From the IMG/VR virus record IMGVR_UViG_647533161_000007: a stretch of 47,228 nt of DNA; one strand, written 5' to 3'. Both the position numbers and the translations under genes were made by a program. The notes beneath the pieces were generated by a model that worked only from the letters and a program-made list of their open reading frames with translations, was not told the origin of the DNA and did no database searches. This document shows, one piece after another, positions 3,308-38,413 of this stretch (the stretch's first letter is position 1; every line of letters begins with the position of its first letter). Source of the stretch: a virus. Its lineage: Duplodnaviria > Heunggongvirae > Uroviricota > Caudoviricetes.

Positions 3308-3883
3308 CTACGGCAGTGCTGGCCATTCAATATCCTGTGCAGTTGACGTATCAACACGGTTCAGCAATACCCGATACTTTTTCCATGCTTCCAGCAACGA
3401 GATTTCTTCCTCCGTTGCAATTTCCAGATCTGCAGCATCCTGAAGCGGCGCAATATGCTCACTGGCTACCTGCATCAGGTTGTTTTTTGTTTCTTCCGCC
3501 TCCCGGATCCGGAACAGTTTTTCTGCTTCCGTATCCTTCACCCAGGCTGTGCCGTTCCACTTCTGAAACTCCCCTTCCGGGGATAACCAGGTGACATTTT
3601 CCGGTAATGGGCCAAGTTCAGAAATAAATAACGCGTCGCCGGAAGCCACGTCATAGACGGTTTTACCCCGATGATCTTCAACGAGATGCCACGATGCCTC
3701 ATCACTGTTGAAAACAGCCACGAAGCCAGCCGGAATATCTGGCGGTGCAATATCGGTACTGTTTGCTGGCAGACCTGTATGAGGCGGAATATATGCGTCA
3801 CCTTCACCAATAAATTCATTAGTTCCTGCCAGCAGATTATAAATTTTTATGGTCCGTGGTTGTTCACTCATTCTGAATGCCAT
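3308..3883 (-). CDS. tfa: Tail fibre assembly protein (Tfa)
   Basis: 191-aa ORF immediately downstream of stf with TAATG stop/start overlap at 3881-3885; typical Tfa size and position. Confidence 0.85.
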
Positions 3884-7529: not shown

Positions 7530-11180
<3,651 letters not shown>

Positions 11181-34772: not shown

Positions 34773-35024
34773 TTATTCTTCTGCAAAAGCAGAAAAGCCA
34801 GCTTTTATTCCGATCTCTTTCAATGCCTGTAATGAAGTGACAAACTCACCTTCGCGCAAGATAAATCCGTCCGTGACCCGAGCATCCACAAAATTAATTA
34901 ACGCAGCCCCATTCTTTCGCAAACACATAATGCGGTAATGACTAACAAGATTTCCATTTTCAACGCACACAGCATAGAGGCCATCTTCACAAAAAATTTT
35001 ACGCAGTTCTTCGATGTTCATCAT
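34773..35024 (-). CDS. Rem-like hypothetical protein (83 aa), copy inside duplicated gap flank
   Basis: 83-aa ORF in the rem position of K-12 Qin (between ydfU and hokD); identical second copy at 35332..35579. Confidence 0.45.
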   Translation of the reverse strand: MMNIEELRKIFCEDGLYAVCVENGNLVSHYRIMCLRKNGAALINFVDARVTDGFILREGEFVTSLQALKEIGIKAGFSAFAEE

Positions 35025-35214
35025 CAGAATCCTTCCGGATAATTAGCTCTCCCCTTTAAGGGACCATCCCTCTTATCCCTGCGCGCTACTTAAGTATTTT
35101 TGATTCTATTCCGGCACCGTCCAGATCTTCAAACGCGTTGAAAATAAAAACAAAAACCCGCCGAAGCGGGTTAAGTGCGGGTGCGTTGAGGATGCCTGCC
35201 ACATCAGAGGTGGC

Positions 35215-35312
35215 NNNNNNNNNNNNNNNNNNNNNNNNNNNNNNNNNNNNNNNNNNNNNNNNNNNNNNNNNNNNNNNNNNNNNNNNNNNNNNNNNNNNNN
35301 NNNNNNNNNNNN
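35215..35312. other. Assembly gap (98 N)
   Basis: Run of N characters. Confidence 0.98.
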
Positions 35313-35331
35313 GATTGTAGATGAGTTTACT

Positions 35332-35579
35332 TCTTCTGCAAAAGCAGAAAAGCCAGCTTTTATTCCGATCTCTTTCAATGCCTGTAATGAAGTGACAAAC
35401 TCACCTTCGCGCAAGATAAATCCGTCCGTGACCCGAGCATCCACAAAATTAATTAACGCAGCCCCATTCTTTCGCAAACACATAATGCGGTAATGACTAA
35501 CAAGATTTCCATTTTCAACGCACACAGCATAGAGGCCATCTTCACAAAAAATTTTACGCAGTTCTTCGATGTTCATCAT
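35332..35579 (-). CDS. Rem-like hypothetical protein (83 aa), copy adjacent to hok
   Basis: Same ORF as 34773..35024. Confidence 0.45.
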
Positions 35580-35700
35580 CAGAATCCTTCCGGATAATTA
35601 GCTCTCCCCTTTAAGGGACCATCCCTCTTATCCCTGCGCGCTACTTAAGTATTTTTGATTCTATTCCGGCACCGTCCAGATCTTCAAACGCGTTGAAAAT

Positions 35701-35727
35701 AAAAACAAAAACCCGCCGAAGCGGGTT
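35701..35727 (-). terminator. Intrinsic terminator downstream of hok
   Basis: 7-bp stem aacccgc/gcgggtt (35710-35716, 35721-35727), loop cgaa, U-rich tail on the minus strand; duplicate at 35155..35172. Confidence 0.5.
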
Positions 35728-35795
35728 AAGTGCGGGTGCGTTGAGGATGCCTGCCACATCAGAGGTGGCGAGGGATTTCTCCCTCGCCGGGTCTC

Positions 35796-35951
35796 TTACT
35801 CCTCAGGTTCGTAAGCTGTGAAGACAGCGACCTCCGTCTGGCCGGTTCGGATTCGTACCTCGCAGAGGTCTTTCCTCGTTACCAGTGCCGTCACTATGAC
35901 GGTTAAACAGATGACGATCAGGGCGATTAACATCGCCTTTTGCTGCTTCAT
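35796..35951 (-). CDS. hokD: Hok-family type I toxin (HokD/RelF-like, 51 aa)
   Basis: MKQQKAMLIALIVICLTVIVTALVTRKDLCEVRIRTGQTEVAVFTAYEPEE from ATG 35949-35951 with AGGAG SD. Confidence 0.85.
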   Translation of the reverse strand: MKQQKAMLIALIVICLTVIVTALVTRKDLCEVRIRTGQTEVAVFTAYEPEE

Positions 35952-36625
35952 AGCCTGCTTCTCCTTGCCTTTCGGCTCGTAAGAGGCTAACCTACATGTG
36001 TCTAGCATGAAATTGGCCTCAGATTAATGTTAAGCGTCTTGCAGGACGCGTAATGTTAACTGGGGCTTTTCTCTATCTGCCTTTGGTGTTCATGCCCGAG
36101 GCAGATAGCCTCAAGCACCCGCAGCCATTCTACTTAACTACCGTTACCTCGCCAATATGAAATCAGTCAGAAAGGCGATCCATAAGAACAATAGCAAGAC
36201 AATAAATCGCCATTACAGCCGTAATAGCCAGCGCACATTTGAGAACCAGCACCACAACCTCCTGTATTGGACGTAGACCAGTCCTGATGAATATGAGGCT
36301 GTCTCGTCAGTGATTCAATACAACTATTGGGTATAGTTTCTCTGATTTTTTCTGTGGAAATGGGGCACAACCACTAGTCACCACCAGCACTTCTTTTAAT
36401 ACGCAAAGTCCGACACAAGCTAACCTTCTAGTCCGCTTTGAGCGAAAAACAGCCATAATTTAGTGCCACGTATATAATGATAGAGCTATTCAAGCTAGCA
36501 ATTCACATGTAAAAATTCAGAGGGTAGAAGCACATAGTTATAAATGTTGGCTCCATCGACAAATTGCGGTCTCAAGTACATTTATTAATGTTGCCCCCGC
36601 ATTAACAAATCATCAAGGTGACGAC

Positions 36626-38413
36626 ATGGACGATATTAATATCAGCCTCGACGAACTTAACACTATTGATTTATCCCCCTTAATCCAGAGTAAGCTGCCA
36701 GTTACCTGCTTTGATATCACAAAGTATCTTTCTAGCCTAGGTGATGGAAGAGCGGAGATAAGACTGCTAACCCATATTTGCGGTTTTCACTTTCGTCCCG
36801 AAAATCCACAGGTACCATTTGGTCCGTGCTTTCAAAGCAGCCAAGGTAGATCTGCAATTCCGGATGACATTAACGGGTTGTCGCTGGAGGTACTTTCTCA
36901 ATTTTGCCCGACGATAGAGCTACCCGAACTTCAAGCTCGTATTGCTGATACACTTTGGGTTCGTAAAATTGGTGGAATCCGTTTTCCTTTGCTGGCAGTC
37001 CGTGCTTATTATGCGTCCAGTATAGCTATTATGACATCGCAAGGGACGTGGGTTAGTGCTTTAGAACGCCTAGAGCGTGCGCTTAGGCTGTGTTGTTTTT
37101 TTCGAAAGAATACTGATTTCAGGGATGAATTTGATCAGCTTTCGGCACATCTACTAGCAGAGTATGAACGTACCAGAGAACAAGGCGATTCACCTTATCC
37201 GCTGCGACTCCTGCAACTCGATATCGACTGTAAAGTGAGTGAGCCATCTTTTATTGCCCAGGAACTCCTGTTTCTGACAAAAAACTATCTGGCTCAAAAA
37301 TTATTTTCATTTGCCGTCGATGCCTGTAAAACCGCAATCACGATTGCGAATAGGTGCTGTGACAGAGATACACAGTTTGAATTCTGGCGGCTTCTTGCCG
37401 ATACACATCTGGAAGAGTCAAAATTCCAAGATGGCGGTATGATTTCGGCAGCCTGCATGCAGAATGCTATTGAAGCACTGGCTAATATTCCAGGAACCCG
37501 AATAGAACGTCTTGCGCTGTATGAAGAAATGCGTGATTACCAAATCGAATCCCGTCACCAGATGTCTATCCTTCAGTCTCCCCCTCAAGATATTAGTGAG
37601 ATTGTCCATCAAGCCAAGAGTCGGGTAGTCGGAAGAGATATGTTTGATATGGTTTTCAGACTTGCGATGCTGGTCTGTCGGCCAACCAGCATTGAGAGAC
37701 TTAAGGCTCAAGCAATAGAACAAAAGGCCAACAGCATAGCTTGGATGTTTGGATCAACACATATTGATCATGAGGGAATGACACTTGCTCGCATACCCGC
37801 AGGATTGGGGATTGATGATGCAAATGGGGCAGTTATTTGGCCCATAATGATGACGAGAATGCGTATCGACCATGAGTTGGCAGTAGCTGGGCAAATTATT
37901 CCTGCTACAGATGAGATCACAATGAAATATCCAATCTCGGAGGCGTTTTTTCGCGATATGTTCATCAATCATCCCTTCATCCCGTTTGGGCATGAAGAGT
38001 TTTTCATCAAGGGTATGGTTTGCGGTTTCAATGGAGATTTTATGACGGCATGCCACGTGTTGATTCCCCAGATCGAAAATAGTCTGAGATATGTGGCTAA
38101 AATTAAAGGTGAGGAACCATCGCAGCTTCACGGGGACGGTTCGCAAGAGCGAAATGGACTCAAGGGATTACTAGATAATCCACTGATTATTGAAGCTTTC
38201 GGCGTAGACATAATTGGCAATCTTCAGGCCTTACTGGTAGATAAAATCTATGGTGATTTACGAAATCAACTAGCTCACGGATATGTGCCTGCCGGTTACT
38301 ACAATCAACCTCCCTGCATTTTTGCATGGTGGCTTGTATTGCACATTCTAATGAACCCTACGGCGAGATACTGGCAAGCCACTTATGGCCAAGAGAGTGA
38401 GGCTCAGACTTAA
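36626..38413 (+). CDS. Uncharacterised 595-aa protein with C-terminal HEPN-like R-x4-H motif; candidate defence/abortive-infection cargo gene
   Basis: ATG 36626 with AAGGTGA SD; RNQLAH encoded at 38261-38278 (aa 546-551); on the strand opposite to flanking early genes; visibly AT-richer than phage structural genes; no recognisable phage core function. Confidence 0.8.
   Translation: MDDINISLDELNTIDLSPLIQSKLPVTCFDITKYLSSLGDGRAEIRLLTHICGFHFRPENPQVPFGPCFQSSQGRSAIPDDINGLSLEVLSQFCPTIELPELQARIADTLWVRKIGGIRFPLLAVRAYYASSIAIMTSQGTWVSALERLERALRLCCFFRKNTDFRDEFDQLSAHLLAEYERTREQGDSPYPLRLLQLDIDCKVSEPSFIAQELLFLTKNYLAQKLFSFAVDACKTAITIANRCCDRDTQFEFWRLLADTHLEESKFQDGGMISAACMQNAIEALANIPGTRIERLALYEEMRDYQIESRHQMSILQSPPQDISEIVHQAKSRVVGRDMFDMVFRLAMLVCRPTSIERLKAQAIEQKANSIAWMFGSTHIDHEGMTLARIPAGLGIDDANGAVIWPIMMTRMRIDHELAVAGQIIPATDEITMKYPISEAFFRDMFINHPFIPFGHEEFFIKGMVCGFNGDFMTACHVLIPQIENSLRYVAKIKGEEPSQLHGDGSQERNGLKGLLDNPLIIEAFGVDIIGNLQALLVDKIYGDLRNQLAHGYVPAGYYNQPPCIFAWWLVLHILMNPTARYWQATYGQESEAQT

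Follow-up and report, generated by a model that had tools for sequence, protein, structure and literature searches.

Small hydrophobic proteins of enterobacteria and their prophages

Type I toxins are peptides of about 19-50 amino acids, including Hok/Gef, TisB, ZorO, DinQ, ShoB, Ibs, and Ldr, each a tiny hydrophobic single-helix peptide with a short charged end. Small inner-membrane regulators such as AcrZ, MgtS, CydX, PmrR, and KdpF, together with YnfT, YnfQ, YnfR, and YnfS of the Qin prophage, are likewise proteins of fewer than 50 amino acids with one transmembrane helix; they are missed by automatic annotation and have been found mainly through start-site ribosome profiling combined with conservation. 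The element treated here is a small open reading frame (sORF) of 29 codons on the minus strand of a 47,228-nucleotide stretch of tailed-phage DNA (IMG/VR record IMGVR_UViG_647533161_000007), hereafter the window, to whose full length all coordinates refer. It lies between a hok toxin module and a divergently oriented cargo gene and was first noticed in a prediction made from the DNA letters and their open reading frames (the original prediction).

The predicted peptide resembles TisB, ZorO, DinQ, ShoB, and Ibs in size and architecture and, like type I toxins, is encoded on a mobile element, where it adjoins a true Hok toxin. Unlike them, it shows no sequence similarity to known members, no antisense RNA or structured leader was found with it, and its message would be short, with a consensus Shine-Dalgarno (SD) sequence exposed. 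With the small membrane proteins it shares its size, its single helix, and its history of being overlooked by automatic annotation, but it has no homology to them, is found in prophages of one genus only, and is absent from the Qin and DLP12 prophages of E. coli K-12, a strain whose hokD occurs without it. For this reason it is missing from lists of K-12 small proteins, and studies in K-12 cannot speak to it.

The gene is already present, undescribed, in public catalogues. Table S4 of 'The Cryptic Bacterial Microproteome' (Fesenko et al., PMC11188072), a re-analysis of retapamulin ribosome profiling, holds an open reading frame (ORF) of E. coli BL21 at NC_012971.2 1591437-1591524(-) with the sequence VLVLKCTLAIVAVMAIYCLVIVLMDHLSD, supported by translation initiation site (TIS) counts of 13 (fraction 1) and ribosome-protected fragment (RPF) counts of 38 (coverage 0.90). 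The entry belongs to the set Entero67K, cluster Escherichia_98807, with nonsynonymous (dN) and synonymous (dS) divergences of 0.074 and 0.161 and a dN/dS of 0.46. This ORF is the ortholog of the window sORF, located at the same distance upstream of hokD, and its product is 86% identical to the window peptide over residues 2-29; the same gene in the same slot thus shows purifying selection in both analyses. The catalogue gives it one table row without a description, and a search of the literature, covering the sequences of the peptides and any ORF described ahead of hok, returned nothing beyond that entry. What is new here is the context, the modularity, the sister families, and the prevalence: the link to hok and to a cargo hotspot, the contexts on virulence plasmids and beside a DUF1971 gene, the putative promoter, and two sister families were worked out in this analysis and are missing from PMC11188072.

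A protein identical to the window product is deposited as OSK45992.1 ('hypothetical protein'), and allelic forms from REL606 (ACT39199.1) and BL21(DE3) (ACT43394.1) bear the names 'membrane protein' or 'conserved hypothetical'. No RefSeq feature lies over the sORF among the matches listed for this stretch, and Pfam, NCBIfam (E ≤ 1), PHROGs, and PADLOC gave no match for the peptide. The proposal of an unannotated small membrane peptide is supported by those RefSeq matches, by the coding constraint described below, and by the BL21 start-site signal, although some GenBank records already name it.

A coding frame preserved by selection

The sORF is very probably a real protein-coding gene maintained by selection. 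Read on the minus strand across its start region (...CAATACAGGAGGTTGTGGTGCTGGTTCTC...), an SD sequence, a 5-nt gap, a GTG start, 29 sense codons, and a TGA stop follow one another exactly at the coordinates originally predicted (Table 1), and the predicted distances are also correct: 211 nt separate the sORF stop from the ATG of hokD at 35951, and the GTG start is 373 nt away from the ATG of the cargo gene at 36626. An ORF of such length is unremarkable alone, as 75 ORFs of at least 20 amino acids occur within 4 kb. The initiation signal is rarer: the pattern AGGAGG-N5-RTG occurs four times in the window against an expectation of 0.62 ± 0.76, none of 100 shuffles reaches four, and the remaining three sites are the starts of genes of 232, 247, and 675 amino acids. 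The ORF-calling program opens the frame one codon upstream, at the GTG at 36255, giving 30 amino acids. That codon is unconserved, reading GTC, ATC, or TAT in other copies; the GTG at 36252 is invariant across copies or replaced by ATG, and the GGAG core of the SD sequence is kept together with the start codon in all intact copies.

Copies in IMG/VR were retrieved with a pattern anchored on the SD and start region alone, and the addition of other known loci gave 126 complete copies. Exactly 29 codons are present in 125 of these, the remaining copy being extended to 31 amino acids by a stop-to-Cys change, and no frameshift or premature stop occurs in any of the 126. Indels are absent from the ORF and numerous in both flanks. 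Frameshifts or stops in homologous regions, which the original prediction named as a refutation, are absent from the SD/start-anchored copies; remnants of the gene occupy about 17 of some 118 loci collected independently of the sORF (described below).

Substitutions point the same way. The 24 distinct haplotypes carry 20 synonymous changes, 21 nonsynonymous changes, and one stop-loss change (ratio of nonsynonymous to synonymous polymorphism, pN/pS, 0.38), and the sORF frame is the only one of six that is free of stops across them. A simulation that moved each mutation to a randomly chosen site with an identical base predicted 11.0 ± 2.4 synonymous changes, against 19 observed (P≈0.001). Nonsynonymous changes are mostly conservative (A/T/V, V/I, D/E, M/V/T, L/F, and S/T), and diversity at codon positions 1, 2, and 3 is 0.032, 0.018, and 0.083 among 64 fully alignable haplotypes. 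The synonymous bias across homologous prophages that had been anticipated for a genuine gene is thus present, with third-position diversity highest. More diverged copies retain the same signature: the copy on the Shigella plasmid pWR100, at 77% nucleotide and 72% amino acid identity, has an intact frame, an ATG start, and a dN/dS of 0.20, the copy at locus L093 has a dN/dS of 0.12, and the range for diverged copies together with sister family B is 0.12-0.23.

At the RNA level, the putative 165-nt mRNA and a 301-nt segment fold no better than shuffles (z -0.45 and z +0.13, respectively), and a scan with Rfam found only the hok leader, with no family covering the sORF or its spacer. The integrity of the frame, the substitution pattern, the absent fold signal, and the absent Rfam family are consistent with selection on the protein rather than on DNA or RNA.

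Several other candidates at the same position were rejected. A structured RNA was rejected on the Rfam and folding results. A hairpin resembling a terminator within the ORF (36228..36209) is weak, and such hairpins are no more numerous than in shuffles. An antisense ORF of 39 amino acids (36157..36276, +) was rejected because its frame contains stops in 10 of the 24 haplotypes.

The product in the window is MLVLKCALAITAVMAIYCLAIVLMDRLSD, with a grand average of hydropathy (GRAVY) of 1.74. Its best 19-residue window, residues 6-24, has a mean Kyte-Doolittle value of 2.58, which fits one predicted transmembrane helix followed by an acidic/basic DRLSD tail. Residue variability shows helical periodicity with a peak near 105 degrees, and positions 7, 11, and 15 are limited to A, T, or V, forming a small-xxx-small-xxx-small face on the predicted helix.

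Table 1. Positions of the sORF and of neighboring features in the window.
Feature	Position	Strand	Details
Family-A sORF	36163..36252	-	GTG 36252..36250, 29 sense codons, TGA 36165..36163
SD sequence of the sORF, AGGAGG	36258..36263	-	5 nt (TTGTG) 5′ of the GTG
Putative sigma-70 promoter of the sORF	36290..36318	-	-35 TTGAAT 36318..36313, 17-nt spacer, -10 CATATT 36295..36290; 8/12 consensus
Conserved spacer of ~190 nt, common to most family-A loci	36253..36445	-	meets the variable cargo slot at its left end
hok promoter, TTGGCG-17-TAGAAT	36127..36155	-	position fits the hok mRNA 5′ end; sORF stop 7 nt upstream of its -35
hok mRNA leader with sok-complementary region	35946..36120	-	Rfam RF01794, 116 bits vs gathering 59, E 6.6e-27, model 1-157 of 157
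mok frame	35796..36008	-	ATG 36008; stop 35798..35796 shared with hokD (ATG 35951)
Divergent promoter-like site toward the cargo gene, GTGATT-16-TATAGT	36310..36337	+	speculative; back to back with the sORF -35
Divergent cargo gene, 595 aa, DUF7380 + DUF4209	36626..38413	+	PADLOC PDC-S39, E 8e-103

Independence from hok and from the cargo gene

The sORF stands between two neighbors, and evidence from other loci separates it from both. The 5′ end of the hok mRNA (about 36120) and the hok promoter lie downstream of the sORF, which is therefore outside the hok mRNA. HokD is annotated by RefSeq at an identical sequence, and neither BLASTP of the sORF peptide against HokD (no alignment at E ≤ 100) nor the Pfam and NCBIfam searches placed it in the Hok/Gef family. 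Nor does the sORF fit a mok-like role, as a leader peptide or upstream ORF within the hok transcript, since it ends before both the promoter and the 5′ end of hok and persists without hok.

The sORF outlives hok in two settings. In 300 E. coli genomes and one S. flexneri chromosome, hok has been replaced by a convergent DUF1971 gene; the sORF is intact there, and the junction follows its stop by about 20 nt. Most of 143 matching plasmid records are virulence plasmids (pINV) of Shigella and enteroinvasive E. coli (135 records at 60-80% identity). On these, an intact sORF is located about 290 nt 5′ of icsP, and all that remains of the hok module behind it is the promoter with about 70 nt of the leader. 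As a side observation, the region upstream of the protease gene icsP on pWR100 (locus L007, NZ_CP037924.1, 2905-3187, with icsP at 3381) descends from this prophage segment, homology ending after the ~70-nt hok leader, and a relic hok promoter (TTGGCG...TAGAAT) remains about 250 nt upstream of icsP.

On the other side of the sORF, the slot between a DUF977 gene and hok holds at least 37 unrelated cargo families, in either orientation, in 117 related prophage loci. The DUF7380-DUF4209 cargo of the window, which matches PDC-S39, modelled by PADLOC as a single-gene candidate anti-phage system, is present in only 8 of the 117, and in BL21 the slot is empty. The sORF therefore occurs beside at least 37 unrelated cargo families, and beside none in BL21, and the suggestion that it could be a functional partner of the neighboring cargo gene has to be abandoned, the more so as the cargo itself is modelled as a single-gene system.

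BL21 also informs the origin of the published ribosome signal. Everything upstream of about -24 relative to the sORF is deleted there, the 3′ end of DUF977 overlaps the ORF start, and the footprints must therefore stem from a transcript of the upstream operon. In BL21(DE3) (locus L137, around 1591485-1591524), the emptied slot is accompanied by a shortened DUF977 protein of 119 amino acids, against 133 elsewhere, whose gene overlaps the sORF start by 40 nt in a different frame.

Distribution in Escherichia and Shigella

The SD sequence and ORF are covered over at least 80% in 1896 of 5426 complete E. coli genomes (35%). Back-translated patterns searched against one genome per species of GTDB matched nothing beyond E. 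ruysiae, E. albertii, S. flexneri, and contaminated metagenome-assembled genomes. A phmmer search against 1.84 billion representative sequences returned only nine matches, all at least 83% identical over the peptide, and six matched sequences that were read are read-throughs made by gene callers. Four cultured phages carry the sORF, namely mEp460, Evi, Tritos, and HannyBb. This leaves a concrete annotation gap, affecting 35% of complete E. coli genomes and the Shigella virulence plasmids, with no RefSeq feature among the matches listed. As it stands, the gene is one well-supported entry among thousands of uncharacterized enterobacterial microproteins; its position between an anti-phage hotspot of cargo swapping and a Hok toxin module gives it particular context.

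The window itself is a Qin/Rac-like lambdoid prophage of E. coli, and many RefSeq chromosomes carry this kilobase unchanged. Genes in this part of the prophage run in the order dicB...Cro/CI, YdaT, a replication gene, DUF977, the reversed cargo, hokD, rem, DUF968, and Q.

Sister families in the slot upstream of the hok promoter

A second scan, anchored on the hok -10 element and 5′ end and thus independent of the sORF, covered about 118 loci; its counts rest on a reconstruction of which loci belonged to the scan and are approximate. An intact, SD-preceded small hydrophobic ORF is located just 5′ of the hok promoter in about 71% of these loci. The ORF of the window, designated family A, is intact in about 37, and two further families, B and C, are intact in about 25 and about 22, respectively. 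The remaining loci hold remnants of family A (about 17) or family B (about 7), family C with a nonsense codon (about 2), or nothing recognizable (about 8). O157:H7 has a prophage with only a frameshifted remnant of family A.

Family B encodes 34 amino acids, MSDDISLAMEGALAVIAVVGVYCLVVFLMDRLGN (for example at IMG/VR loci L213, L197, and L223), and family C encodes 27, MTWPEAFTTVGIAMAVALVVYSICRWG (for example at IMG/VR loci L221 and L196); both are annotated just as hypothetical or 'bacteriophage protein'. They resemble family A in that they occupy the same slot and strand, are preceded by an SD sequence, encode one hydrophobic helix, and have accumulated coding-type substitutions, with changes at codon positions 1/2/3 numbering [4,1,11] in family B and [10,6,24] in family C, in both cases biased to the third position. 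Family B is homologous to family A over the C-terminal 23 residues, 14 of which are identical (61%), with a dS of 1.29, a dN of 0.30, and a dN/dS of 0.23; it differs in having an acidic N-terminal extension and a 24-bp palindrome after the ORF. Family C has no reliable sequence similarity to family A, has a shorter C-terminus, and sometimes overlaps the upstream gene through an ATGA. The stop codon abuts the hok -35 element in families A and C, and that of family B lies about 34 nt further upstream.

Two side observations concern these families. The copies of family C at loci L154 and L184 carry a nonsense mutation at codon 3. The perfect 24-bp palindrome CCGATATGGGAATTCCCATATCGG between the family-B stop and the hok promoter (for example at L164) lacks a U-tract and persists where the family-B ORF has been replaced (L147, L149, L155, and others).

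A probable stand-alone membrane microprotein

The reading that we favor, and consider probable as a whole, including its membrane mode of action, is that the sORF encodes a stand-alone accessory single-pass inner-membrane microprotein. The ORF, its SD sequence and start, purifying selection on the frame, persistence in several contexts, and a restricted taxonomic range are shown by this analysis, and the start-site and footprint signal in BL21, weak but positive, was shown by others. On this reading, the gene would encode, in lambdoid (Qin/Rac-like) prophages of Escherichia and Shigella, a microprotein of 29 residues, nearly all of them in one predicted hydrophobic helix that most likely enters the inner membrane and crosses it once. 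The peptide would most likely act through helix-helix contacts, either by self-association or by binding another membrane protein. Translation would proceed from a strong SD sequence with a weak GTG start. The sORF is the nearest conserved gene on the upstream side of the hok promoter and on the downstream side of the variable cargo/defense slot; it relies on neither neighbor, is accessory, and is frequently lost. If true, activity at the membrane or a connection with Hok would bear on prophage maintenance, lysis timing, or exclusion.

Transcription of the sORF is probably provided by a weak sigma-70 promoter of its own (TTGAAT-17-CATATT, about 32 nt upstream), by read-through from the early-right operon, or by both. 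The predicted promoter, with a start expected near 36283-36285, is the sole forward-strand candidate apart from the hok promoter. Its hexamers (-35 TTGAAT, TTGAAG, or TTGAGT, and -10 CATATT) and 17-nt spacing are kept in HannyBb, L093, and pWR100, in which the spacer sequence differs, and CATATT is invariant across 79 haplotypes. Homology between lineages often starts only about 65 nt upstream of the sORF start. The minus strand between DUF977 and the cargo gene yielded no terminator, which makes read-through from the early-right operon also plausible.

Several points weigh against this reading. The gene is often destroyed, as shown by the roughly 17 family-A remnants among about 118 hok-anchored loci and by the frameshifted O157:H7 remnant, so any function must be dispensable. 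Most copies are close kin, and the counts of intact copies are not independent events. A hydrophobic helix tells little of mechanism. The putative promoter matches the consensus at only 8 of 12 positions, and neither the L063 type nor BL21 has it. Finally, the start-site signal is weak (13 reads) and comes from BL21, that is, from another allele and another transcript context, in which the putative promoter is deleted and the upstream operon feeds the ORF.

Alternative explanations

Among the alternatives, a second type I-like membrane toxin beside hok is unlikely; a toxin restrained by its weak GTG and by an unrecognized RNA antitoxin could serve in abortive infection, prophage maintenance, or lysis timing. 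The hydrophobic helix with its charged tail, of a size and architecture like those of TisB, ZorO, DinQ, ShoB, and Ibs, is what such a toxin would look like, the prophage site adjoins both hok and a defense hotspot, and positions 7, 11, and 15, all occupied by small residues, hint at helix packing. Small size and hydrophobicity, with one predicted transmembrane helix, are nevertheless the only type I hallmarks found among those that could be checked. No promoter-like site matching at 8 or more of 12 positions lies antisense to the ORF or downstream pointing back, the locus has a single inverted repeat, 11 nt long and of a size expected by chance, and Rfam recognizes no antitoxin besides the hok leader itself. 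Promoter, Rfam, and inverted-repeat searches thus found no cognate antisense or complementary small RNA at the locus, although these are weak tests and an unconventional antitoxin is possible. Furthermore, the mRNA has no more structure than its shuffles, a lethal peptide would be an odd product of an unprotected message with a consensus SD sequence, the sORF peptide has no similarity to any toxin family, and the gene is kept by itself both on pINV and next to DUF1971.

It is more doubtful still that the sORF is an accessory part of the hok module, either as a peptide that modulates the activity or insertion of Hok or as a transcribed and translated segment that tunes hok. This idea draws on the frequency with which the hok-anchored loci carry an intact SD-preceded ORF of family A, B, or C, on the stop codons that abut the hok -35 element in families A and C, and on the finding that no terminator separates the ORF from hok. 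Set against this are the location of the ORF outside the hok mRNA, the presence of three peptide families beside near-identical hok modules, which implies no co-variation, the approximately 22% of hok loci that hold only ORF remnants, the hokD of K-12 that lacks the ORF, and family A remaining intact after the loss of hok. A broader version, to which we give similarly little credence, is that hok modules of Escherichia prophages have an extra 5′ slot filled by at least three families of single-pass microproteins that act with or against Hok, or that mark or regulate the edge of the defense hotspot; if true, this would make the locus a three-part membrane-active module instead of a classical hok/mok/sok locus.

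Least probable, and very unlikely in our estimation, is a non-functional frame conserved as a recombination arm at the hotspot edge or as upstream promoter DNA of hok, with an incidental ribosome signal, as its position at the exact boundary of a recombination hotspot, the >90% identity of most copies, the commonness of pervasive weak translation of intergenic ORFs (the TIS count being just 13), and the frequent loss of the gene might suggest, because conservation at the DNA level predicts neither third-position bias, the excess of synonymous changes (P≈0.001), nor the switch from GTG to ATG, nor an ORF without indels between flanks that have them, nor 61% amino acid identity between families A and B at near-saturated dS, and because the antisense frame is stopped in 10 of 24 haplotypes and no RNA-structure signal was found.

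Other features of the locus

The divergent promoter-like site listed in Table 1 lies in a region conserved among typical haplotypes. Because it is part of the conserved spacer rather than of cargo-specific DNA, the constant flank might supply a promoter for any reversed cargo. At the junction between the cargo slot and the spacer, a hairpin (GTCCGCTT-CTCGCTCA-AAGCGGAC) occurs in Evi, Tritos, and GZEC065, aligned to about 36425-36448 of the window; in the window its left arm has been replaced, leaving it incomplete. The hairpin has no T-run on either strand.

A sub-threshold isrK-like match to Rfam at 35706-35787 (-), with 25.7 bits against a gathering threshold of 50, lies over the 3′ end of hok and its terminator hairpins and most likely reflects a generic resemblance to terminators. 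The window also contains two runs of N, one of 528 nt at 8826-9353 and one of 98 nt at 35215-35312. Around the latter, a 300-nt exact direct repeat (34776-35075 and 35331-35630) duplicates rem, and this duplication looks like a scaffolding or assembly artifact rather than biology.

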